Positions 9,840 to 47,856 of a stretch of 64,000 bases of DNA are shown here, piece by piece. Position 1 is the first letter of the stretch, and the number at the start of each line of letters is the position of its first letter. The notes below the pieces were generated by a model. That model did not search any database. It saw only the letters and a program-made list of their open reading frames with translations, and was not told the DNA's origin. The stretch is from Alphaproteobacteria bacterium (lineage in GTDB: Bacteria; Pseudomonadota; Alphaproteobacteria; Bin95): contig JAWLBX010000011.1 in the NCBI GenBank assembly GCA_041687435.1, positions 52,918 through 116,917 on the forward strand. Reading direction: 5' to 3'. A program made the translations under genes and the position numbers.

Positions 9840-10727
9840 CTAGTGCCCGGCCCCGCGATGCTTCTGGATCCGGGCGCCATAGGCCTGGCTGACGCGGTCG
9901 AAGATGATCGCGATCGCAACAATGGCCAGGCCGTTGAGCAGTCCCATGGTGAAGTACTGGTTGGTAATGGCCTTCAGCACAGGCTGGCCAAGGCCCTTGA
10001 CCCCAATCATGGACGCGATCACGACCATGGCGAGCGCCATCATGATGGTTTGGTTGATGCCGGCCATAATGTTCGGCATTGCCAGCGGAATCTGAACGCC
10101 GAACAGGCGCTGCCGGAAGTTCGCGCCGAATGCATCGGCGGCTTCGAGCACGTCCTTGTCCACCAGCCGGATGCCCAGATTGGTCAGGCGGATGACCGGC
10201 GGGATCGCATAGATCACCACCGCAATCACGCCCGGAACCCGGCCGATGCCGAGCAGCATGACCACGGGGATCAGATAGACGAAGGGCGGCATGGTCTGCA
10301 TCACGTCCAGCACCGGCGTGATCGATGACTGCGCACGGTCATACCGCGCCATCATCACCCCAATGGGGATGCCGATGATGATCGACAGCACGGTGCAGAC
10401 AAGGATGATCGATATGGTGCTCATCGTGTCTTCCCACATGCCGAAGAGACCGATGAGCACAAAGGCGACGGCGACACCGACGACCATCCAAAGGCTGCGC
10501 GCCGCGCCATAAGCCAAGGCTGCGACGACAACGATAATCAGCCACCACGGCGAATTCAGGAGCAGTTGCTCAAACCAGATCATGAATTGCAGCAAAGGAT
10601 CGAAGAAATCCTCGATCGCGATACCATAGGAACGTGAAAATTCCCGGTATGCACCATCGATTCCGCGTCTGATTTCCAACAATGTTTCACGTGGAAGCGC
10701 GGGAAATTCTACGAGCCATTCGGCCAT
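9840..10727 (-). CDS. proW: glycine betaine/proline ABC transporter permease
   Basis: Multi-pass membrane protein with the ABC permease EAA-like loop (EAADAFGANFRQRLFGVQIP). ATG start verified. It lies immediately upstream of proV. Confidence 0.9.
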   Translation of the reverse strand: MAEWLVEFPALPRETLLEIRRGIDGAYREFSRSYGIAIEDFFDPLLQFMIWFEQLLLNSPWWLIIVVVAALAYGAARSLWMVVGVAVAFVLIGLFGMWEDTMSTISIILVCTVLSIIIGIPIGVMMARYDRAQSSITPVLDVMQTMPPFVYLIPVVMLLGIGRVPGVIAVVIYAIPPVIRLTNLGIRLVDKDVLEAADAFGANFRQRLFGVQIPLAMPNIMAGINQTIMMALAMVVIASMIGVKGLGQPVLKAITNQYFTMGLLNGLAIVAIAIIFDRVSQAYGARIQKHRGAGH

Positions 10728-12554: not shown

Positions 12555-12977
12555 ATGGCCGAAATCTTGCCACCGACCCTGGACGACCTGCAAGTGCTGG
12601 CCGACCGCGCCTTCGCCAGTATCCCGGCGGAACTGGCGCGGCATGTACAGGGCGTCGCCATTCTGATCGAGGATTTCCCGGATGCGGAAGTCGAACGCAG
12701 CATGGAACTGGATTTCCCGTTCGACCTGCTGGGCCTCTATCACGGCGTTTCCCTGGCGGAGAAAAGCTTCGGCGACGCACCGAACGATCTGGACCGTATC
12801 TTCCTCTACCGCCGCCCGATCCTCGACTATTGGTGCGATACCGGAGAGGATCTGGCCCATGTGGTGCGCCACGTTCTGATCCACGAGATCGGCCACCATT
12901 TCGGCCTGTCCGATGCAGACATGGAGGCGTTGGAGGCGTTGGCCACCGACGACGATACAGACCCTCCCGCGCCCTGA
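12555..12977 (+). CDS. small zincin-like metallopeptidase-family protein (HExxH)
   Basis: 140-aa cytoplasmic protein with [14 protein letters not shown], an HExxH motif on a predicted helix as in the 'possible zinc metallopeptidase' (Zincin_1-like) family. ATG verified. Confidence 0.65.
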
Positions 12978-13018
12978 CCCCACGCCCTGGCCGGATCGCC
13001 GCAGCGGCCAGCAGATCG

Positions 13019-13035
13019 GTTAACCGGCGGTTAAC
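13019..13035. promoter_or_regulatory. perfect 17-bp palindrome GTTAACCG-G-CGGTTAAC between the zincin gene and the WD40-caspase gene
   Basis: Two 8-nt arms that are exact reverse complements around a 1-nt spacer. It is AT-containing with no U-tract, so it looks more like a dimeric-regulator operator than a terminator. It sits 42 nt after the upstream stop and 62 nt before the ATG at 13098. Confidence 0.3.
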
Positions 13036-13097
13036 CATGCGTTGTCAGGCTAGCCTTTACGATTTGGTAATGGTTCAGCACTGCGGGAGCATAGCGC

Positions 13098-16000
13098 ATG
13101 CGCATCTGGCGCGGCGTATGGCGTACGGCGATGGCGATCTGCGCCGCCTGGCCGATGCCAGGGTCGGGCGCCGACCCATCCGTCACCGCTTATCACAGCC
13201 ACCTGCGGCCGGTGCAGGCTGTGGCCAGCCTGGCCGCGGACGGGGTAATCGCCACCGGCGACAGCGGCGGCGTCGTCTATCTCTGGCGGCTGTCGCAGGC
13301 AGAGACTGCCCTGGGTGCAGAGTTGCGACAGGACGGGCCGAGTATCGGCATCCCGCCAGCCGAGCGCCTGCCCGGTCCCGTCGCGGGGCTTGCCTTTGGC
13401 GATGCGCGCTGCGACGGCCCCGACAACCCGCCGGTATCCGGCTGCGGCCTGTTCATCGCCGGCCAGGGCAGCGCCGGTTTCAGCTATCTGCATCTGTATG
13501 ACTGGCGCCGCCAACGCCTGCTCGCGTCGGCAGAGGTGCTGCGCGGCAGCATCACCCATGTCGCGGCCGCGCCCGGAGGTGCGGAGGTCACAGCCTGCAC
13601 CATGCGCGTCGGCATTCAGCATTTCCGGCCCGATCTCCACCGGCAGACGCTTGAGCGCACGGGCGAACGGGCGGAGCCGCCCGCCGCAAGCCTGGGCTGT
13701 GAATGGGCCGGCTATGATGCCCGCGGCAACCTGCACTTTGCCAGCGGTGACCGGCTCGCAACCGTGCTGCCGCCGCCAGCGGGGCCGCGGCTGGTGGATG
13801 AGGCGCCGCGCAACGCCCTGGCCCTCAACCCGAACACGGGCGCCGCGCTTGCCGCCGCCATCGCACGGCCCGATCACGTCGCGCTCTACCCGGCCATGCC
13901 CGGCCCCGACGCCGGGTCGGCGCCCGCCAGAATCCCAACCGGCTCGCGCCATGGCGATACCGGAGTGGAGGCGCTGGCCTGGCGCGATGGCGGCGATGAC
14001 AGAGGCGGCTATCTGTTAACCATCGGGCCGTACGAGGCCGGCGCAGCCACTGAAACGGTGACGCACCAGATCGAGCGCTGGCGCCTGCCCGACGCAGCGG
14101 AGGCGGACAGCCCAGACCAGCCGCTTCGCCCGCACCAAAGCAATTTCAACGAACTGGTCGCGCTGCAGGGCAAGGCCACGGCACTGATGCCGCTCACCGC
14201 ATCATGGATCAGCCCGGGCGACCCCGACCGTTACCGCTATGTCGCTGCGTTGGACGAGGCGCGGCGGCTGGTTCTCGTTGCCGGGCGCAGCGGCTACACC
14301 AAAACCGCCAGCGGCCAGCGCACCGCCGATCCCTTTTTTGCTCTGGAGGCTCGGCCTTATGCGCGCGCGGAACTGCAAATCGGCAGCGCGGGTGAGGCGG
14401 CCTGTCTCTGGCCTGGCGGCAAGGCCGCGTCTGTGACCTTCCGTCCGCCCGGTTCCGCGGGCGCTGACTGCCGGGCATTACCCGCGCCGGCTGCCGAACC
14501 GGCCGCACCGCCGCAACACCGGCCGGATGGGTCGGTGGTGATCCCGCCGGCGCTCCAACCCTTGAATTTTCCGGGTGACCGCCTTCGCGCCTATACCCTC
14601 AGCGCCGATGGCCGCGCAATGTTTGCGGCGGTCGCCGTAGCGCGCGCAGAGGACACAGCACCGGTTGAATTGCGCCGTTATGCGCTGCGTGCGGACCGCT
14701 GGGCCGCCAGGGGTGAACCGGTGCCAGCCGCGGCGGACGTTGTCGCCCTGACCCTGACGGATACGGCCACCCTCGGCATCGCCCTGCGCGAGCCGGCAGG
14801 CGGCGGCACCTACCGGGTAGAGTCCCGCACCATCGACCCGACAGATGCCGCGCCCGCGCTGGTGGTTCATGCCTTCGTCCCATCGCCAACGGAAGATACC
14901 GCCTTCACCCTCTGCTTCGACACGCGCGACCCGGCCCAACCGCTGGCGCTTTATCAAAAGGATGGGCCGCGCATTCGCCTGGGGCCGCCACGGCCGTCAC
15001 CGGACGGCGGCAGAGCGGTAGCGGACGATAACGGCCTCCTGGCATTGGTACTGGAATCGGTGGCGGATCCGGCCTGCGCCGAAGCGCCGATGCAACCGGG
15101 AATGCAGCGCTTCCGCATGACCGTCCGTCTGCCCTTCGCACCGGATGGCGCCTTCGACCTGGTGCCGGAGGGCGGGAGGCCCGAATATTACATTATCAAC
15201 TTCAGCCGGCCGAAACTTTACATCCTCGCCGTCGGCATAGACGACTATTACGACGACCGTTGGCGCCTGGACTACGCCGTCAAGGACGCTCAGGCATTTT
15301 CAACACTGGTTGGCAGTACGCAATCGCAACTGTATTCCGAAATCGAAACCGTTTTGATCCGCAACGGGGAAGCCAATCGCAAAAACATCCTGATCGAGCT
15401 TGCGAAATTGCAACGCAAGGCAACGCCGAAAGATTGGGTGATGATCTTTTTCGCCGGACACGCCAAATCCGACTGGGTCTACGATTATTACTTTTTGCCC
15501 TGGGATTACGATCACACCTATCCCCACTCAACCCAGATTTCGGAGCACGACCTGGCGGCGCATTTGCGCGGCATCCGGGGGAAGAAAGTGCTGATCCTCG
15601 ACACATGCTACGCAGGAAACCTTGCCAATGCCCGTATCCGCAGTGTCGGCGATGATGCTGCACCGCGGCGGCTACCCCTGGCTGACGTGCGCGCATACGC
15701 CGAACGGCTCATTCGGATCGACGAAGGGCTGATCCTGCTGGCGGCATCGTCGCTCGATCAGACCGCGCGGGAGTCAGACAGTCTCGGCCATGGCGTGTTC
15801 ACCAGTACGCTGCTGGACGCCCTGCGGTCGCCCGAACGCTTCGCAAACCGCCGGTACCCGGGAGCGCTGAGCGTCAACGACATCCGCAACTGGATCGAGG
15901 AAGAGGTGGTGAGCCGCTCTCGCGACCGGCAACGGCCGGTAATTGCCGGCAGGGCGGACCTGCTGCGCGCGCCATTCTGGCAGGTCGCGCCACAGACCTA

Positions 16001-16103
16001 CAATGGCCCGCCACAGGCCAGCAACCGCACACGCGGCGCCAGCAGGGTGCAGGCCGTCGGGCCGGTCCTTTGGCAGGCAGAGGCCGCGGCTTCTACCCCT
16101 TGA
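13098..16103 (+). CDS. multidomain protein with an N-terminal WD40-like repeat region and a C-terminal caspase (peptidase C14) domain
   Basis: ATG with a GGGAG RBS. The N-terminal 300 aa carry WD40-like repeats (VASLAADGVIATGDSGGVVYLWRL; FSYLHLYDW; LAWRDGGDDRGGYLLTIGPYE). The C-terminal domain, from nt 15200, has the caspase fold signature KLYILAVGIDDY...DAQAF...DWVMIFFAGHA...KKVLILDTCYAGN, with the catalytic His in FAGHA and Cys in DTCYAG. Confidence 0.8.
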   Translation: MRIWRGVWRTAMAICAAWPMPGSGADPSVTAYHSHLRPVQAVASLAADGVIATGDSGGVVYLWRLSQAETALGAELRQDGPSIGIPPAERLPGPVAGLAFGDARCDGPDNPPVSGCGLFIAGQGSAGFSYLHLYDWRRQRLLASAEVLRGSITHVAAAPGGAEVTACTMRVGIQHFRPDLHRQTLERTGERAEPPAASLGCEWAGYDARGNLHFASGDRLATVLPPPAGPRLVDEAPRNALALNPNTGAALAAAIARPDHVALYPAMPGPDAGSAPARIPTGSRHGDTGVEALAWRDGGDDRGGYLLTIGPYEAGAATETVTHQIERWRLPDAAEADSPDQPLRPHQSNFNELVALQGKATALMPLTASWISPGDPDRYRYVAALDEARRLVLVAGRSGYTKTASGQRTADPFFALEARPYARAELQIGSAGEAACLWPGGKAASVTFRPPGSAGADCRALPAPAAEPAAPPQHRPDGSVVIPPALQPLNFPGDRLRAYTLSADGRAMFAAVAVARAEDTAPVELRRYALRADRWAARGEPVPAAADVVALTLTDTATLGIALREPAGGGTYRVESRTIDPTDAAPALVVHAFVPSPTEDTAFTLCFDTRDPAQPLALYQKDGPRIRLGPPRPSPDGGRAVADDNGLLALVLESVADPACAEAPMQPGMQRFRMTVRLPFAPDGAFDLVPEGGRPEYYIINFSRPKLYILAVGIDDYYDDRWRLDYAVKDAQAFSTLVGSTQSQLYSEIETVLIRNGEANRKNILIELAKLQRKATPKDWVMIFFAGHAKSDWVYDYYFLPWDYDHTYPHSTQISEHDLAAHLRGIRGKKVLILDTCYAGNLANARIRSVGDDAAPRRLPLADVRAYAERLIRIDEGLILLAASSLDQTARESDSLGHGVFTSTLLDALRSPERFANRRYPGALSVNDIRNWIEEEVVSRSRDRQRPVIAGRADLLRAPFWQVAPQTYNGPPQASNRTRGASRVQAVGPVLWQAEAAASTP

Positions 16104-17526
16104 AGCCGCGCAGCAGGTAGAGGTAATAGGTCTCCGGTCCGCGGGTGGGGCGGACGCGCTGGACCGGCGGCAGGGGCTCTACAGCCGCAAACCGGTCCGC
16201 CAGATGCGCTGGCGAGGCATTGCGGGTGATATACAGCAGCGGGCGGCCGCCGATCGCCGATGCATCGCTGACCAGTTCGTAATGGTCCCGCGCATGGGCG
16301 GCGGTGCGCAACTTGACCCATTCCGGCGGCTGGGGCGGCACATAGAACAACATCTCGGCGATCACGGCCCGGTCGTCGGCGATCAGCAGCGCATCCGGTA
16401 TTTCGGACAAGCGTTCACCTACCGCGGTGCCCACCTCCTGCCAGCCGCGCAGCCGGTGCCAGGGGTCGATCCCGAACGCCGGCGCGACGCTGCTGCCATG
16501 CATGATGGCGGCGGCAGCGGCCAAGTGCAGGGCAAACGACCAGCCGAGCCAGCGCGCCCGGCCCTGCCGCAGCAGAAAGCCGACCACCAGCACCGTCGCG
16601 CTGATATAGGCGACCGCGGCCCAGTTGGCATGGGCGCGGGAAACCAAAGCCTGAACCAGCATCAGCAACAGCACGGGCGCGGCAAAGGCGGCCAGCACAC
16701 GCTCACCCGGCTGCAGCCGGCGCCAGCAGATCAGGGCCCAGACAAATCCCGCCAGCAGGATCGGCCCCATCACGCCGAACTGAGCGCCGGCAAACTCCGC
16801 CAGCTTGTGCGGCTTTAGGGTCAAGCCGTTCCAGTTGGCATTGTCGGCGGTGTGACTGAAGCTGGCAAGCTCGTGAGTCCAGTTCCACCAGACATTCGGC
16901 AGGAACAGCAGCAAACCCAGCCCAATGCCGAGCCAAAAGCCCGGCCGGCGCAACACGGCCCGCGTCTGCGGCACCAGCAGGAAAGCGGCCGGCAGGCAGA
17001 GCAGCATATAGACCATGGCATACTTGCTCATAAGCCCCGCGCCAAAGGCCAGACCGAACCCGATCCACCAAAGGCCGCCATGCTGCCAGTAGCGCAGCCA
17101 GCAGAGCAGCGCCGCAGCCCAGCACAGCAGCAGCGGCACATCGGTGGAGGCGATCTGTGCCGACAGGCTGATCCCCGGCAGTGTGGCGAGGGTAATGGCC
17201 GTCCATGCCGCCGTGCGCCGGTCGTAAAGCGTAGCGGCGATGGCGCCGCCCAGCGCCGCGGTCAGCGCGTAACAGAGCGGTGAGACCAAGCGCACGCCGA
17301 ACTCCGTATCCCCGGCAAGGCCAGTGGTCAGTGCAATCAGCCAGGCGGTCACCGGCGGCTTGGAGTAATAGCCAAAGGCGGGATTTTTCGCCCAGAACCA
17401 ATATTGCGCCTCGTCAAAGAACAGGTCGAGGCCGCTCACCGCCAACGCGCCGACACGCCAGGCGGTCAAGGCCAGGACGAAGGCGGCGGCGATGGTCAGT
17501 GGGTAGCGGTGCCAGATTGCAAGCAT
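16093..17526 (-). CDS. glycosyltransferase family 39 (ArnT/PMT-like) membrane protein
   Basis: 477 aa with multiple transmembrane segments. The N-terminal DEAQY and the YYSKPP loop motif are characteristic of ArnT/PMT_2 glycosyltransferases. ATG verified. Its 3' end overlaps the convergent caspase gene by 11 nt. Confidence 0.75.
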   Translation of the reverse strand: MLAIWHRYPLTIAAAFVLALTAWRVGALAVSGLDLFFDEAQYWFWAKNPAFGYYSKPPVTAWLIALTTGLAGDTEFGVRLVSPLCYALTAALGGAIAATLYDRRTAAWTAITLATLPGISLSAQIASTDVPLLLCWAAALLCWLRYWQHGGLWWIGFGLAFGAGLMSKYAMVYMLLCLPAAFLLVPQTRAVLRRPGFWLGIGLGLLLFLPNVWWNWTHELASFSHTADNANWNGLTLKPHKLAEFAGAQFGVMGPILLAGFVWALICWRRLQPGERVLAAFAAPVLLLMLVQALVSRAHANWAAVAYISATVLVVGFLLRQGRARWLGWSFALHLAAAAAIMHGSSVAPAFGIDPWHRLRGWQEVGTAVGERLSEIPDALLIADDRAVIAEMLFYVPPQPPEWVKLRTAAHARDHYELVSDASAIGGRPLLYITRNASPAHLADRFAAVEPLPPVQRVRPTRGPETYYLYLLRGFKG

Positions 17527-17533
17527 GAGGCTG

Positions 17534-18292
17534 TCAGGCGTCCGGTTCCGGTGCGTTCAACAGCCCGGCGCCCCAAACACGGCCGGGCCCGGCCTGCTGC
17601 ACGATTACGGCGACGCCCCAATTTGCCGGCTCGCCGGGCATGACCTGCACTTCCATCGACTGCGCCCGCCCATCGTAACGGCCGATGGTTTGCCGTTCAC
17701 GCACGATCTGATGGTAGGCAAGGCGTTTGCCGCCGTTTTCGCCGCGCAAAATCTCCGTTTCACGCCGCCTGTCGAAACGGGCGAGCCAGATGTCGGCGCC
17801 CGCGGCCTCCGCCGCGGCGGGCAAGGCAATACGCACGCGGTCCGGCGCGGCCCAGGCCAACAGCGGAGTCGCCGGCCGCGGTAGCCGCGCCGCCCTGGCA
17901 ATGGCGAAGCGCACCCCGCGTTCGTTCGAGTCGATCTCGTGCGTTTGCCCGTCAATCACCATTTGCGGGGTATAAACCCGGCCCTCGCTCACCGTCTCGC
18001 CATAGCGGCGCTGGCGTTGGGTGCCCCATTCAGTTGCAAACGGGTCTGGCCAGCCAAGCCGGTCCCAGTAATTGACGTGAAAGGCAAGGGCGACAACCTC
18101 ACCTTTCGCCGCCAACCGGCCCAACGCCCGGTCGGCCGGCGGGCAGGAATAGCACCCCTGGGACGTGAACAATTCCACCAGCACCGGTTGGCTGCGGCCA
18201 TCGCTACGCACCGGCGCATAGAAAAAGATGGCCACGGCCAGGCAGGTCGCCGCCGCCGCTACCGCCAGAATGGGAGAAGTCAAAACTCGCAT
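17534..18292 (-). CDS. DUF1223-family thioredoxin-like secreted protein
   Basis: Start at the internal ATG (MRVLTSPILAVAAAATCLAVA, a signal peptide). A CxxC motif (FTSQGCYSCPPAD) follows in a thioredoxin-like context. Confidence 0.55.
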   Translation of the reverse strand: MRVLTSPILAVAAAATCLAVAIFFYAPVRSDGRSQPVLVELFTSQGCYSCPPADRALGRLAAKGEVVALAFHVNYWDRLGWPDPFATEWGTQRQRRYGETVSEGRVYTPQMVIDGQTHEIDSNERGVRFAIARAARLPRPATPLLAWAAPDRVRIALPAAAEAAGADIWLARFDRRRETEILRGENGGKRLAYHQIVRERQTIGRYDGRAQSMEVQVMPGEPANWGVAVIVQQAGPGRVWGAGLLNAPEPDA

Positions 18293-18361
18293 GCGGGCTA
18301 GGTACGGCTGCGCCGGCAGGAACACAAGCGGCATCCATCACAGTTCGCCGCTGTTGGCCGG

Positions 18362-19165
18362 TCACTCGCCAGAAGCGGGTGGCGGAATCCGAAAAATCTG
18401 GCCGGGAAAGATCAGATCCGGATTGTCGATCTGGCTGCGATTCGCCTCGACGATCATGACGTATTGGAGGCCATCCCCATAGAACCGTTCCGCCAGCCGC
18501 CAGAGATTGTTGCCGGGCTGCACCACGAAACGGTCCGGCAACGGCAGATCGCCGGTATTATCCGCCTTGGCGAAGGGCAGGCTGACCGTCGCGGCCATTC
18601 CGCCCGTGCCACCGAACTCCTCCGCCTGCAGGCGATACTGTCCGGCGGGCACCGGCCGGTCCGGCTGCAGACGCCAACGGCCCTCCGCATCGGCCTCGGC
18701 CTCGCCGACGATCTGGCCGTTCAGGCTGACACGGACCGTATTGCCTGGCGATGCCGAACCCGTCAGCGTCACCTCGCCCGCATCGTCATAGCCCACCTGC
18801 GCAACAGAAAGACTGCCCGACTGGGGCCGGTTGGGGTCGGGCTCGGCCGCCACGGCGCGGATGGTCTCGGAAATGGTTTCGGTAACCGCACCCGCCGGAA
18901 CTTTCGCCGGCCCGGCGCCGGCCTCCGGTCCTGGCCCCACCGGCACGGTCCAGCGTGCCGTGGCACCCGCTGCCGCAGGGGCGTTCCTACGCTCTGCCGG
19001 CGCGCCGACAGTCGGCAAGGGCAGATCAACCGGTGGCGCAGCCGGCTGGATCACGGCCCGGCCTGCCGGCGTGCGTTCCGGCTGCCAGCCGGGATGCCAT
19101 TGATGGATCGCCGCAGCGGCAGCGATAACCGTTGCGCCCAGAACGCAAACCGCGACAACTACCCG
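18362..19165 (-). CDS. LysM-domain peptidoglycan-binding membrane protein with an Ig-like domain
   Basis: The C-terminal LysM (VVQPGNNLWRLAERFYGDGLQYVMIVEANRSQIDNPDLIFPGQIFRIP) is preceded by a signal-anchor (LRVVVAVCVLGATVIAAAAA). The true start is uncertain and is probably a TTG near 19165, because the track ORF would overlap the divergent LOG gene. Confidence 0.55.
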   Translation of the reverse strand, partial: RVVVAVCVLGATVIAAAAAIHQWHPGWQPERTPAGRAVIQPAAPPVDLPLPTVGAPAERRNAPAAAGATARWTVPVGPGPEAGAGPAKVPAGAVTETISETIRAVAAEPDPNRPQSGSLSVAQVGYDDAGEVTLTGSASPGNTVRVSLNGQIVGEAEADAEGRWRLQPDRPVPAGQYRLQAEEFGGTGGMAATVSLPFAKADNTGDLPLPDRFVVQPGNNLWRLAERFYGDGLQYVMIVEANRSQIDNPDLIFPGQIFRIPPPASGE

Positions 19166-19297
19166 CAAAGACTTATGGATCCTTCCCTGAAAGCCATGTC
19201 TGTATAGCAGAGAGTACACGGTGGCCGCCAACCTTAACCCTGGCCGCCATCGGAACGGAGCCGGACGGCCGCAAGCCGTCCAAGGGAGACAAACCGG

Positions 19298-19843
19298 ATG
19301 ACCAGAGCCGCCATCTGCGTGTTCTGCGGCTCGCGCCACGGCACGCTGCCCGCCTATCGCGATCTGGCCGTGCGCGTCGGCCACGGCCTTGTCGACCGCA
19401 ATGCCGGCTTGGTCTATGGCGGCGGCGCGCTTGGCCTAATGGGTGTGGTCAGCGACAGCGTGCTGGAGAGGGGCGGCCATGTGACCGGCATTATGCCTGG
19501 CTTCCTGCGGTTTGCCGAACGCCAGCACGACAACCTGTCCCGCATGATCATCACCGACGACATGTTCCAGCGCAAACAGGCGATGTTTGACCTGTCCGAC
19601 GGCTTTCTGGCCCTGCCCGGCGGCATCGGCACGCTGGACGAGGTGCTGGAGGTGCTGACCTGGCACCAGCTCGGCCAGGTCGACAAGCCGCTGGTCCTGC
19701 TGGACGAAGGCGGCTTCTGGGGGCCGTTCGTCGCCGCGCTGGAGCATGCGGTAACGCAAGGGTTCGCCGGCGAGAATACCCGCTCGCTCTACCGGGTGGA
19801 ACACACGCTGGACGGCGCGTTCGCCGCCCTCGGCCTCAGCTAG
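19298..19843 (+). CDS. LOG-family cytokinin riboside 5'-monophosphate phosphoribohydrolase-like protein
   Basis: The GGGxGxMG (VYGGGALGLMG) and PGGxGTxxE (LPGGIGTLDEV) motifs are present. ATG with an AAGGGAG RBS. Confidence 0.85.
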   Translation: MTRAAICVFCGSRHGTLPAYRDLAVRVGHGLVDRNAGLVYGGGALGLMGVVSDSVLERGGHVTGIMPGFLRFAERQHDNLSRMIITDDMFQRKQAMFDLSDGFLALPGGIGTLDEVLEVLTWHQLGQVDKPLVLLDEGGFWGPFVAALEHAVTQGFAGENTRSLYRVEHTLDGAFAALGLS

Positions 19844-45765: not shown

Positions 45766-47856
45766 ATGCCGCAACCGCCCGTCGCCCGCACGTCCGACGC
45801 CATTCTGGAAATGCACGGCCAGCGCATCGCCGACCCCTATGCTTGGCTTCGCGCCGAAAATTGGCAGGAGGTCATGCAGGATCCGGGCCTGCTCGATCCG
45901 GAAATCCGCGCCTATCTGGAGGCCGAAAACGCCTACACCGACGCGATAATGGCGGATACCAAACCCTTGCAGGACGCGCTGTTCGCCGAGATGAAGGGCC
46001 GGCTGAAGGAGGACGACGCGTCCGTGCCGGTGCCGGATGGCGCCTTTGCCTATTTCAGCCGGTTCCGGCCAGGCGACCAGCACCCGCAATTCTGCCGCTC
46101 GCCAACGGATGACCCGGGCCAAGTGGACGTGATGCTGGATGGCGACGCGGAGGCCCAGGGCAAGGCCTATTTCCGTATCGCCGCGATCCAGCACACCGAC
46201 GACCACCGGCTTCTGGCCTGGGCGGCGGACAGCACCGGCTCCGAGCAATACGTCATCCGCGTGCGCGACCTGGCCTCGGGCGAGGAATTGCCGGACGAAC
46301 TGCACGAGGCCACGCCGTCGCTGACCTGGGCGACCGACGGCCGCCACCTGTTCTACACCAAACGCGACGCCAACTGGCGGCCCTACAGTGTCTGGCGGCA
46401 CGAACTCGGCACGCCGCAGGCCGACGATGTCTGCGTCTTCAAGGAGGCTGACCCCGGCTATTTCGTCGGTGTCGGCCGCACCGCATCCCGTGCCTTCATC
46501 GGCATCAACACCCACGACCACGAGACCAGCGAATGGCATCTGATCCCGGCCGCTGCCCCGACCACAGAGCCTCGCCTGTTCGCGGCGCGCGATCCCGGCG
46601 TCGAATACGATCTGGAACATATGCCGGGCGCAACGCCCGGGGAAGGCCACTTCATCATTCGCACCAACGCCGACGGCGCCGAGGACTTCAAGCTGGTAAC
46701 GGCGCCGGAGGGCTCGGTTTCACGTGAAACCTGGCAGGATCTGGTGCCGCACGAGCCCGGGCGCCTGATCCTCGGCCTTTCCGCCACTCACCGGCATCTG
46801 ACCCGGCTGGAACGCGTCGCTGGCCTGCCGAGGCTGATCGTGCGCGAATGGCCGGGCGGCGAAGAACACGCCATCGCCTTCGACGAAGAAGCCTATTCGC
46901 TCGGCCTGGGCGGCGGGTTGGAATTCGCGACGACGATGCTGCGATTTGTCTATTCCTCCATGACGACGCCGGCGGAAACCTACGACTACGATCTGGAAAC
47001 GCGCGCGCGCACCCTCCGCAAACGGCAGGAGGTGCCCAGCGGCCACGACCCGGCGGATTATGTGACGCGCCGCCTGCTGGCCAAGGCTCCGGACGGCGAG
47101 GAAGTGCCGATCACGCTGGTGTACCGGCGCGACGCGACCCTGCCCGCGCCGACGCTGCTCTATGGCTATGGCTCCTACGGCATCAGCCTGCCGGCGAGCT
47201 TCGGTGTGGTGCGGCTCAGCCTGGTGGACCGGGGCTTTGTCTGGGCGCAGGCGCACGTGCGCGGCGGCATGGAGAAAGGCTACCGCTGGTATACGGAGGG
47301 CAAGCGCGAGAAGAAAGAAAACACCTTCCGCGACTTCATCACGGCGCGCGATCACCTGGTGGCGGAAGGCATCGCCAAACCGGATGCCGTCGCTGCGGAA
47401 GGCGGCAGTGCGGGCGGCATGCTGATGGGCGTGGTGGCCAATTGGGCGCCGGAAAAATTCGCCGCCATCGTCGCCAACGTGCCCTTCGTCGACGTGCTCA
47501 ACACCATGTGCGACGAGAGCCTGCCGCTGACCCCGCCGGAATGGCCGGAATGGGGCAATCCGATCAAGGATGCGGCGGCGTTCGAGCGGATCAAAGGCTA
47601 CAGCCCCTACAATAACGTCACCGCACAGGACTACCCCGCCATCCTGGCCATCGGCGGCCTCAGCGACCCGCGCGTGACCTATTGGGAGCCAGCCAAATGG
47701 GTGACGAAGTTGCGCGCGACCGCAACCAGCAACAAGCTGCTTCTGCTCAAGACGGAAATGACCGCAGGCCACGGCGGCGCGGCTGGCCGGTTCGACAGCC
47801 TGAAGGAAGATGCGTTTCAGTATGCGTTCGTGCTGAAGGCGCTCACAAATGCGTGA
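45766..47856 (+). CDS. ptrB: oligopeptidase B (S9A prolyl-oligopeptidase family)
   Basis: 696 aa. N-terminal beta-propeller plus a C-terminal alpha/beta catalytic domain with GGSAGG (Ser), a D in GGLSDPRV, and H in TAGHGG. ATG verified. Confidence 0.85.
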   Translation: MPQPPVARTSDAILEMHGQRIADPYAWLRAENWQEVMQDPGLLDPEIRAYLEAENAYTDAIMADTKPLQDALFAEMKGRLKEDDASVPVPDGAFAYFSRFRPGDQHPQFCRSPTDDPGQVDVMLDGDAEAQGKAYFRIAAIQHTDDHRLLAWAADSTGSEQYVIRVRDLASGEELPDELHEATPSLTWATDGRHLFYTKRDANWRPYSVWRHELGTPQADDVCVFKEADPGYFVGVGRTASRAFIGINTHDHETSEWHLIPAAAPTTEPRLFAARDPGVEYDLEHMPGATPGEGHFIIRTNADGAEDFKLVTAPEGSVSRETWQDLVPHEPGRLILGLSATHRHLTRLERVAGLPRLIVREWPGGEEHAIAFDEEAYSLGLGGGLEFATTMLRFVYSSMTTPAETYDYDLETRARTLRKRQEVPSGHDPADYVTRRLLAKAPDGEEVPITLVYRRDATLPAPTLLYGYGSYGISLPASFGVVRLSLVDRGFVWAQAHVRGGMEKGYRWYTEGKREKKENTFRDFITARDHLVAEGIAKPDAVAAEGGSAGGMLMGVVANWAPEKFAAIVANVPFVDVLNTMCDESLPLTPPEWPEWGNPIKDAAAFERIKGYSPYNNVTAQDYPAILAIGGLSDPRVTYWEPAKWVTKLRATATSNKLLLLKTEMTAGHGGAAGRFDSLKEDAFQYAFVLKALTNA

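Follow-up and report, generated by a model that had tools for sequence, protein, structure and literature searches.

Bacterial homologs of caspases are numerous and are usually treated either as relics of programmed cell death or as its agents, although to our knowledge the trigger, the location or the substrate is known for almost none of them. The stretch of alphaproteobacterial DNA analyzed here (64 kb, hereafter called the window) encodes a 1001-aa protein in which a propeller-like N-terminal region is joined, in one chain, to a C-terminal caspase-fold domain. This fusion had been pointed out in an earlier note on the locus and is genuine. It raises the question of whether the protein is a death or antiphage effector, as that note proposed by likening it to Apaf-1-type death machinery and to abortive-infection effectors, or whether the gene and its product are better explained by another role.

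Domain composition of the predicted protein

The features distinguished at the locus were collected in Table 1. The GC content of the caspase gene (~0.66) is similar to that of the whole window (~0.645), in agreement with the host-like composition described before, and the Rfam and tRNA scans of the 64-kb window gave no match.

Table 1. Features of the caspase gene, its product and its upstream region (coordinates are those of the window).
Feature	Coordinates	Strand	Remarks
Full CtrA recognition box (predicted), TTAACCGGCGGTTAAC, TTAA-N7-TTAAC	13020..13035	+	Starts 78 bp upstream of the ATG; motif match
CtrA half-site (predicted), TTAACCAT	13031..13038	+	Overlaps the 3' half of the full box
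Ribosome-binding site, GGGAG	13085..13089	+	8 nt 5' of the ATG; direct sequence reading
ORF, 1001 aa, propeller-metacaspase, putatively exported	13098..16103	+	Longest ORF at the locus
Putative Sec signal peptide, aa 1-25, MRIWRGVWRTAMAICAAWPMPGSGA	13098..13172	+	n-h-c layout; small residues at -3/-1
Orphan beta-rich, propeller-like region, aa 26-600	13173..14897	+	Invariant Cys105/116, 167/201, 436/458
WD40 repeat, aa 30-67, HSHLRPVQAVASLAADGVIATGDSGGVVYLWRL	13185..13298	+	The one sequence-detectable repeat; profile searches, repeat HMM
Beta-rich domain just ahead of the protease, aa 601-700	14898..15197	+	Eight predicted strands, pLDDT ~67-93; invariant Cys606/Cys660
Peptidase C14 domain (metacaspase-like), aa 705-960	15210..15977	+	p20- and p10-like parts both present
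Catalytic His788 in FFAGHA (aa 784-789)	15459..15461	+	Aligned to the GHG His of AtMC4/Yca1
Catalytic Cys837 in LDTCYAG (aa 834-840)	15606..15608	+	DTC aligned to DSCHSG of AtMC4/Yca1
Arg-rich loop between the p20- and p10-like halves, ARIRSVGDD..PRR	15630..15656	+	Low confidence; pLDDT <50 at model residues 366-373
Short C-terminal motif G-P/R-V/I-L/V-W-Q/R	16062..16082	+	Conserved; missing from the L002/L006 lineage

The caspase fold, which the earlier note had left to be checked, was recovered both by HMM search and by structure modelling. Pfam PF00656 (Peptidase_C14) matched aa 710-949 (E = 7.4e-13, 49.2 bits against a cutoff of 21.4) over positions 5-223 of the 233 in the profile, and in the AF2 model (mean pLDDT of 80.6) the domain has the caspase-hemoglobinase fold. 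Single-sequence phmmer comparison of the caspase domain with the PDB gave nothing useful and a profile search was needed. The His/Cys dyad is intact, as had been claimed, and its positions are equivalent to those of the metacaspase dyad; His788 is invariant in eight of eight relatives and nearly invariant among 48, and Cys837 is invariant or nearly so across the alignments of relatives. The CHAT model (PF12770) did not match. The gene product is a real caspase-family protease and is probably active. In the profile alignment Asp730 and Asp835, the latter two residues ahead of Cys837, coincide with the S1-pocket aspartates of metacaspases. The enzyme is metacaspase-like and, because these acidic residues are conserved, is expected to prefer Arg or Lys and not, as true caspases do, Asp. 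The Arg-rich loop is a candidate autoprocessing site.

The N-terminal 700 aa form an orphan module, present only in about five lineages of uncultured Alphaproteobacteria. A profile search with this segment retrieved members of the family and WD40 proteins and nothing else; about 115 WD40 proteins matched the profile, all of them solely at the stretch of aa 30-67, which was also matched by WD40 chains from the PDB and is 41% identical to a WD40 blade (hhalign). A purpose-built repeat HMM, constructed from 677 WD40 repeats and compared with shuffled controls, found one repeat in the window protein (aa 35-67, 37 bits) and scored 32-45 bits in every ortholog, with no further WD40 repeats above the controls. 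The Pfam WD40 model (PF00400) matched neither the whole protein nor its N-terminal segments, and C14 was the only family recovered when the full-length sequence and four N-terminal segments were scanned with Pfam, NCBIfam and PADLOC. Thus, the part of the earlier description that stands at the sequence level is a single WD40 repeat, while the other blades of the "WD40-like propeller" appear in structure models alone; the N-terminal model has a pLDDT of 45.

It should be stressed that the middle region, described earlier as having no recognizable family, is more than a linker devoid of features. Its Pro/Ala-rich character was confirmed by a composition count (A 20-21% and P 10-11% in aa 231-600). 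Conservation extends over this beta-rich region, and in the structure model the segment of aa 495-595 can be superposed on propeller blades. The first propeller-like blades are conserved to the same degree as the catalytic domain, and a family signature (LAFGDARCDGPDNP...CG...GFSYL.LYDWRR) lies within aa 26-600; relatives carry Ig-like (Big_7) domains at the place occupied here by the domain of aa 601-700. The models suggest that the N-terminal region comprises more propeller blades and a beta-rich domain. The N-terminal profile gave only marginal collinear hhalign matches to WD40-caspase relatives (probabilities of 17% and <1%), and homology of the whole module to canonical WD40-caspases is therefore at most tentative.

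Putative export to the cell envelope

The absence of a signal sequence, asserted in the earlier note, was not confirmed: the window protein and all its orthologs start with a segment resembling Sec signal peptides and passing from basic through hydrophobic to small residues, and the predicted n-h-c layout was found in 5/5 full-length orthologs, including P0002 with a corrected start. The hydrophobic core differs in strength, with a Kyte-Doolittle maximum (KD9) of 2.5-3.1 in four orthologs versus 1.6 in the window protein, a value which overlaps the range of cytoplasmic control proteins. A Tat signal was considered because of the WRRTLL motif in L010 and was rejected, as this motif is not kept in other orthologs, and the same applies to a lipobox in L002/L006 (VWGC), which is atypical and not conserved.

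The mature chain contains exactly nine cysteines, all invariant among the orthologs. Eight of them occur in sequence-adjacent pairs (105/116, 167/201, 436/458 and 606/660); the one left over is the catalytic Cys837. Complete caspase-domain relatives mostly have signal-peptide starts, and the partner domains of the closest ones are of cell-wall or surface type (Big_7, PG_binding_1, SH3_4, Sel1 and YARHG-type). N-terminal transmembrane segments or signal peptides, together with extracellular domains, are also known in prokaryotic metacaspases (PMC3501461; PMC3355149). From the signal-like N-terminus shared by all orthologs and the invariant paired cysteines we infer that the protein is exported to the cell envelope and that the four pairs are disulfide-bonded, the pairing itself being read from conservation and spacing.

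Genomic neighborhood and the upstream CtrA box

The genes flanking the caspase gene are housekeeping ones, as previously described. The nearest upstream gene, encoding a Zincin_1 protein, lies 120 bp away on the same strand; it is replaced by a different gene in L001 and L002, and it was rejected as an operon partner because it is not conserved there. The downstream genes (PMT_2, DUF1223 and LysM) are conserved, and PMT_2 is convergent with the caspase gene. An operon or a functional link with these genes was likewise rejected, since they are convergent and not co-transcribed, and L009 retains them without the caspase gene; beyond an envelope theme in common, their conservation was not taken as a sign of shared function. 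From its arrangement, the caspase gene stands alone, outside any operon, and probably has its own promoter.

The caspase gene is single-copy and narrowly distributed. Its supposed vertical inheritance was supported in part: synteny is kept in four to five lineages, yet in one close relative the gene is missing from this position. On a related contig the same flanking genes lie ~25 bp apart, with the caspase gene absent.

The upstream region contains a predicted full CtrA box, of which there is one in the 64-kb window against 0.03 expected, and across the 1.05 Mb of compared loci there is one other TTAA-N7-TTAAC site. Exact boxes precede the orthologs in L001, L002 and L006 by 77-78 bp and the ortholog in L008 by 87-90 bp; L010 has a box with one mismatch and no exact one. 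In the alignment of the upstream regions, the columns of the box are nearly the sole invariant ones, while the remaining spacer has diverged and the upstream genes differ. The five box-bearing lineages are related, and conservation of the box is not a matter of five fully independent events. The source genomes of these loci are labelled Alphaproteobacteria. Near seven more distant caspase loci no CtrA box was found. The full- and half-site consensus sequences come from ChIP-seq and footprinting in several Alphaproteobacteria (PMC3692519; PMC7200025). The motif match suggests that the gene is transcribed under CtrA via the predicted box, and the conservation of the box points to cell-cycle or developmental control.

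Relation to known systems and possible role

The combination of WD40 repeats with a caspase domain is already well known. WD40 is the commonest partner in prokaryotic metacaspases, present in 10.9% of 671 proteins, and Alphaproteobacteria are rich in these proteins, also called orthocaspases (Asplund-Samuelsson et al. 2012, PMC3501461; Klemencic & Funk 2017, PMC5756287). No function is known for them or for the architecture seen here, as the earlier note had stated for proteobacteria. The WD40-metacaspases likewise fuse a Peptidase_C14 domain bearing the His/Cys dyad to WD40-type repeats. In the window protein, unlike in these enzymes, the order is reversed (propeller N-terminal, protease C-terminal), one sequence-recognizable repeat is accompanied by an orphan module of ~650 aa with four conserved cysteine pairs, and there are a predicted export signal and an upstream CtrA box.

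The part order and size (1000-1200 aa) are shared by three uncharacterized proteins from other proteobacterial metagenome contigs (P0005, P0006 and P0007), two of which (P0005 and P0007) consist of a signal peptide, WD40, an Ig-like domain and a caspase domain, in that order. Their caspase domains are 28-33% identical to that of the window protein, and blades 1-3 after the signal peptide match weakly and collinearly (hhalign probability of 17%, which is marginal). Unlike the window protein, all three have many canonical, Pfam-recognized WD40 repeats and no upstream CtrA box. Plant, fungal and trypanosome metacaspases (AtMC9 8a53, AtMC4 6w8r, Yca1 4f6o and TbMCA2 4af8) and the bacterial GSU0716 (3bij) show only 14-18% identity to the window protein and differ from it in being cytosolic and without a propeller. 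The gingipains (C25) and the propeller-gated prolyl oligopeptidases (S9) belong to different families, and the T9SS signal is not present in the window protein.

The reading closest to the earlier note is that of a cytoplasmic single-chain sensor-executioner resembling Apaf-1, in which the WD40 part would sense phage or stress, the caspase would be released and the cell killed. It has in its favor the pairing of WD40 with a caspase, which is the sensor/effector pair of the apoptosome, the intact dyad, a weak match to the generic caspase model of PADLOC, the weakness of the hydrophobic segment of the window protein, and the presence or absence of the gene among close relatives, a pattern often seen with accessory defence genes. 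The Apaf-1/CED-4 apoptosome and the bacterial STAND (NACHT/NB-ARC)-WD40-caspase proteins indeed have both WD40-type repeats and a caspase-fold protease, but they are characterized by an oligomerizing NTPase and death-fold adaptors in the cytosol, and the window protein has neither and carries a predicted export signal. No NB-ARC, NACHT, STAND, CARD, TIR or CHAT domain was found with Pfam and NCBIfam, and no P-loop/NTPase family with Pfam, NCBIfam and PADLOC, which bears out the lack of NTPase, TIR and CHAT domains already noticed. In PADLOC-DB v2 the protein matched only the generic model named "caspase", weakly and over positions 1-157 of 453 (E = 2e-8), the five neighboring ORFs that were scanned gave no match (0/5), and NCBIfam NF047832 (caspase, EACC1-associated type, of conflict systems) reached 56 bits, below its cutoff of 140. 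The cytosolic location which this reading predicts disagrees with the signal-like N-terminus and invariant paired cysteines of all orthologs, and a conserved CtrA box is more in keeping with control by development than with triggering by infection. With neither an NTPase nor a death fold, and with the predicted export signal, the paired cysteines, the putative CtrA box and no defence genes nearby, the likeness to Apaf-1-type machinery and to abortive-infection effectors was not upheld, and we regard such an executioner as highly improbable.

Export being assumed, the enzyme could instead be fully secreted or displayed on the surface and, like gingipains or clostripain, serve degradation or antagonism, being directed at nutrients or neighboring cells and not at the envelope proteins of its own cell. 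This is somewhat less remote, and still doubtful: no outer-membrane secretion signal (T9SS CTD, autotransporter or PEP-CTERM) was recognized by Pfam and NCBIfam, there are no secretion-system genes close by, the gene is single-copy and of narrow distribution, and the predicted CtrA box hints at cell-cycle timing. It may also be asked whether TTAA-N7-TTAAC is the operator of another regulator, or a promoter element conserved by chance, in front of a constitutive periplasmic housekeeping protease. The GTTAAC sequence is palindromic and therefore could serve a different dimeric regulator, the box in L010 carries a mismatch, and its assignment to CtrA is motif-based. Against this stand the exact fit to the consensus of full sites as well as to that of half-sites (PMC3692519; PMC7200025), the conserved spacing between box and ATG, and the rarity of AT-rich 16-mers at ~65% GC, which together leave us with little belief in a box unrelated to CtrA.

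We consider it slightly better than an even chance that the gene encodes a Sec-exported, disulfide-stabilized metacaspase-type protease expressed from its own promoter under CtrA. Binding of CtrA~P to the TTAA-N7-TTAAC box, ~70 bp ahead of the start codon, would limit expression to the CtrA-active phase (motile, predivisional or developmental), the 25-aa signal peptide would direct the product to the periplasm or the cell surface, and the four cysteine pairs of the N-terminal 700 aa would form disulfides outside the cytoplasm. There, the propeller-like region may bind targets or gate access to the active site, and the C14 domain (His788/Cys837, acidic S1 pocket) would cleave after Arg or Lys, possibly following autoprocessing in the Arg-rich loop (about aa 845-858); envelope or surface proteins are the likely substrates.

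PerP of Caulobacter crescentus is a periplasmic aspartic protease that is transcribed under cell-cycle control and trims PodJ, a polarity factor. As a functional analogy we propose that the window protein might resemble it in being an exported protease whose synthesis, timed by the CtrA circuit, allows one round of envelope-protein processing in each cell cycle; as an aspartic protease PerP has no sequence or fold in common with the window protein, and the analogy is therefore our own conjecture. More tentatively, and with a good deal less confidence than the location and control proposed above, a propeller-guided metacaspase of the CtrA program might be made once per cycle, or when the cell becomes motile or enters development, and might cleave a specific envelope or polar-surface protein, acting as a developmental switch and not as a death executioner.

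All members of the family come from uncultured organisms. The mitochondrial ancestor was related to the Alphaproteobacteria. The predicted export signal and the disulfide pattern would place the enzyme in the envelope, where the role of a cytoplasmic executioner would be impossible, and the conserved CtrA box would tie its synthesis to the alphaproteobacterial regulator of the cell cycle and motility. If both export and CtrA control are true, Alphaproteobacteria would possess a caspase-fold protease for timed processing of the envelope. The developmental switch suggested above, if real, would give the first regulatory context for any proteobacterial WD40-caspase, and it would be a non-death ancestral role in the lineage from which the metacaspases of eukaryotes are thought to derive.

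Protease domain and N-terminal module

The 1001-codon reading frame described in the earlier note is present, with a GGGAG ribosome-binding site 8 nt ahead of its ATG and a coherent codon-position GC pattern throughout. Its overall GC content matches that of the window, in line with the composition match claimed before. Within the gene (window 13000-16000) GC is uneven (0.69-0.71 in the N-terminal module vs 0.61 in the caspase domain), which may reflect Ala/Gly/Pro-rich composition or separate histories of the two halves.

Features of the caspase gene, its product and its flanks, in window order
Feature	Position	Strand	Remarks
OpuA-type ABC transporter			first of the listed flanking genes
Pterin-4a-carbinolamine dehydratase			between OpuA-type transporter and Zincin_1
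Zincin_1 protein	12555..12977	+	directly upstream of caspase gene
Full CtrA site, TTAA-N7-TTAAC	13020-13035		exact; in the 120-bp spacer
Caspase-gene ORF	13098..16103	+	1001 aa, as in the earlier note; longest ORF at this place
Signal-like segment, window protein	N-terminus		MRIWRGVWRTAMAICAAWPMPGSGA
Signal-like segment, L001 ortholog	N-terminus		MRIRPGAVGISLALMLLWSPETDA
Signal-like segment, L002/L006 orthologs	N-terminus		MPVCPGRLVLGLVVGIVWGC
Signal-like segment, L010 ortholog	N-terminus		MPMPFWRRTLLRVVAVAAGVALPGAAS
Signal-like segment, L008 ortholog (P0004)	N-terminus		MQFGFGRAIAVVGLCLGAISIW
Peptidase_C14	aa 710-949		Pfam E=7.4e-13, 49 bits vs cutoff 21
PMT_2 glycosyltransferase (ArnT-like)	16093..17526	-	convergent with caspase gene
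DUF1223, then LysM/Big-domain protein			beyond PMT_2; convergent with caspase gene
LOG and isocitrate dehydrogenase			after LysM/Big protein

Pfam recognized no family besides Peptidase_C14, even when the N-terminal part was searched as four segments at E<=10. With the whole protein, NCBIfam gave only a sub-threshold match (EACC1-associated caspase model, 56 bits vs cutoff 140), the sole PADLOC match was a partial one to a generic caspase model, and homologs are labelled 'caspase family protein' at NCBI. A profile made from eight caspase domains and run against PDB sequences recovered Arabidopsis metacaspase-4, yeast Yca1, Geobacter GSU0716, and TbMCA2, placing the GH and DTC of the family (FFAGHA, aa 784-789; LDTCYAG, aa 834-840, the motifs quoted in the earlier note) on SGHG and DSCHSG of these enzymes. 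The AlphaFold2 model of aa 480-1001 (48-sequence alignment; mean pLDDT 80.6, caspase core mostly >90) was matched by Foldseek to GSU0716, MALT1, metacaspases 9 and 4, Yca1, and caspases 7 and 3 in the PDB, with E-values down to 1.5e-10. Therefore the caspase fold and the placement of the dyad, whose absence the earlier note had named as fatal to its proposal, are borne out, and the protease fold of the C-terminal domain is virtually certain.

Both p20- and p10-like halves are found in the domain, joined by an Arg-rich loop (aa 845-858) of low model confidence. Two aspartates are invariant, Asp730 in the 'DA' that follows strand 1 and Asp835 at position -2 from the Cys. They align with those of the basic-specific S1 pocket in metacaspases, a pocket assigned from the TbMCA2 structure, so that the enzyme would be expected to prefer Arg or Lys and not Asp. 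'Metacaspase-like' describes this domain accurately, and the protein is filed in family C14, for which all testable features were found. Membership in Apaf-1/STAND, CHAT or a known defence system was considered and rejected on the features that define these groups. Near the extreme C-terminus (aa 989-995, window 16062-16082) most orthologs, together with fragments P0144 and P0145, carry a conserved motif, G-P/R-V/I-L/V-W-Q/R (variants GPVLWQA, GRVLWRA, GPIVWQG); the L002/L006 lineage lacks it and ends at FAGGGG.

The N-terminal 700 residues are an orphan module. Among 5.8 billion clustered proteins only three further full-length clusters were found (58, 46, and 43% identity), and an exhaustive N-terminal profile search of 1.84 billion representatives returned three true family members, the remaining ~115 matches being WD40 proteins aligned at profile positions ~30-80 only. 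WD40 chains of the PDB match the single repeat in this stretch, which aligns at 41% identity with one blade of a canonical WD40 protein that has seven. With an HMM made from 677 WD40 repeats, and shuffled sequences as controls, aa 35-67 of each ortholog scored 32-45 bits, and no second repeat rose above the controls in any of them. By sequence, then, the region holds one WD40 repeat, not a propeller, and of the WD40-like propeller proposed earlier this single repeat stands, Pfam having recovered no WD40 at all and the repeat HMM no more than this one. Structure prediction lends partial support to additional blades; the propeller fold is suggested in part by models and not demonstrated.

The middle region is indeed Ala/Pro-rich, as previously noted, and it is not a linker, because it is conserved and has predicted beta structure. 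In the model, aa 601-700 form another beta-rich domain directly preceding the protease, a position occupied by Ig-like (Big_7) domains in relatives. Conservation in the ortholog alignment peaks at aa 51-150 (44-48% invariant columns, equal to the catalytic domain), with the signature LAFGDARCDGPDNP..CG...GFSYL.LYDWRR.

Signal-like N-termini and paired cysteines

The absence of a signal sequence, reported in the earlier note, was not upheld: each of the five full-length orthologs starts with a basic n-region, followed by a hydrophobic core and a c-region of small residues. Because the core of the window protein is the weakest (Kyte-Doolittle-based KD9 score 1.6 vs 2.5-3.1 in the orthologs), its own signal peptide is probable, not certain. 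The start of the L001 ortholog entry P0002 (MCB9928027.1, 920 aa) is miscalled; its ORF runs 108 codons further upstream to MRIRPGAVGISLALMLLW... (L001 9677-10000), and the corrected protein (1028 aa, like cluster member P0008) regains its signal peptide together with its WD40 repeat. The L010 signal peptide contains a Tat-motif-like WRRTLL.

The mature chain has nine cysteines and no more, all invariant across the five orthologs; eight form sequence-adjacent pairs (105/116, 167/201, 436/458, and 606/660), and the one left over is the catalytic Cys837. Such a pattern is typical of disulfide-bonded extracytoplasmic proteins and is unlike CxxC metal sites. Most of the complete nearest caspase-domain relatives have a signal-peptide start, with Big_7, PG_binding_1, SH3_4, Sel1 or YARHG-type partner domains, and P0005 and P0007, from other proteobacterial metagenome contigs, share the part order of the window protein (signal peptide, WD40 repeats, Ig-like domain, caspase). 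For prokaryotic metacaspases, an N-terminal signal peptide or transmembrane segment has been reported, along with partner domains of extracellular type (PMC3501461), as has a secreted caspase-YARHG protein of Bradyrhizobium (PMC3355149). The cysteines, the signal peptides of relatives, the P0005/P0007 order and the literature count as independent support, and export of the propeller-metacaspase is likely.

Genomic site and upstream CtrA box

Elsewhere the window carries chromosomal housekeeping genes (IleRS, enoyl-CoA hydratase, hydantoinase, prolyl oligopeptidase, molybdoenzyme), and tRNA and Rfam scans of it gave no match. The prolyl oligopeptidase (window 45766-47856, +), which belongs to the S9 peptidases and has a beta-propeller at its N-terminus, is an unrelated propeller-gated peptidase. 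LysM/Big, DUF1223, and PMT_2 make up an envelope-related string (window 16093-19384, -), and the PMT_2 and caspase-gene stop regions overlap by 11 bp. The downstream block is kept in the ortholog-bearing loci L001, L002, L006, and L010, and the upstream neighbour differs by lineage (Meth_synt_2 in L001, a luciferase-like gene in L002). With a convergent block on one side and a variable neighbour on the other, operon membership of the caspase gene is therefore rejected.

The envelope-related string is also found in L009 (TARA_R110002074_G_scaffold95727_8), a related contig carrying DUF1223, PMT_2, Zincin_1, and OpuAC at 66-76% identity. Here PMT_2 and Zincin_1 are convergent and ~25 bp apart (L009 2230-2330), the 3.1-kb caspase gene being cleanly absent between them, with no remnant; close relatives thus differ in whether this one fixed site carries the gene. 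Vertical inheritance, as put forward in the earlier note, is too strong if meant strictly: synteny across the lineages agrees with it and the empty L009 site does not.

The closest stand-alone caspase relatives (P0148 and P0152; L092 963-3999, L093, L095 170-3795) adjoin genes for FG-GAP/VCBS beta-propeller repeat proteins. A propeller thus accompanies the caspase domain repeatedly, as a fusion in this family and in the WD40-caspases and as the product of an adjacent gene in these loci. In L091 (104-5867), C14+DUF4384 and WD40-C14 genes flank an unannotated 290-aa gene on one strand, an arrangement that resembles an operon made up of caspase homologs.

The 120-bp spacer upstream of the caspase gene contains GGTTAACCGGCGGTTAACCATG, and the 3' half of the full CtrA site in it runs into the half-site TTAACCAT; both consensus sequences are known (PMC3692519; ChIP-seq study PMC7200025). 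This is the one full site in the 64-kb window, vs 0.03 expected from shuffles, and the loci retrieved for comparison (1.05 Mb) hold just one other site. In L001, L002, and L006 an exact box precedes the start codon by 77-78 bp, and in L008 by 87-90 bp; L010 has TTAGGAATTCGTTAAC, with one mismatch to the box, followed by TTAACCAA. In this L010 upstream region (10484-10604) a second GTTAACC lies ~36 bp downstream of the box, a layout slightly unlike that of the other lineages. When the six upstream regions were aligned, the two box halves were the main invariant block, despite differing upstream genes, and at seven loci whose caspase genes are more distantly related no CtrA box was present. The half-site occurs twice in the window (0.37 expected), the copy inside the coding region (window 14016-14023) probably by chance.

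Proposed role and alternatives

The conserved box is a phylogenetic footprint. Since the source genomes are labelled Alphaproteobacteria, control by CtrA, their cell-cycle response regulator, is its obvious reading and a reasonably probable one; that the box is something other than a CtrA site seems improbable. A literature search found no paper tying CtrA to a bacterial caspase homolog. We propose that CtrA would time synthesis of the propeller-metacaspase, that Sec would export it and disulfides stabilise its chain, that the caspase domain would cut proteins of the envelope or cell surface behind a basic residue, and that the propeller-like region would pick the target or control access to the active site. 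For a CtrA-timed, Sec-exported, disulfide-stabilised propeller-metacaspase as a whole, the balance tips slightly in favour. That the protein is instead a secreted degradative or antagonistic protease is unlikely. Least probable is the cytoplasmic Apaf-1-like death or defence machine of the earlier note, which lacks the defining NTPase and is at odds with the evidence for export. Caulobacter PerP, a cell-cycle-regulated periplasmic protease, is a functional analogy to the proposed exported enzyme, not a homolog.

WD40-caspase fusions are the commonest multidomain form among prokaryotic metacaspases (PMC3501461), and the architecture as such is therefore already known. New are an N-terminal orphan module with paired cysteines, restricted to some five lineages of uncultured Alphaproteobacteria, the indications that the propeller-metacaspase is exported, the presence or absence of its gene at a fixed site, and the conserved putative CtrA box ahead of it.
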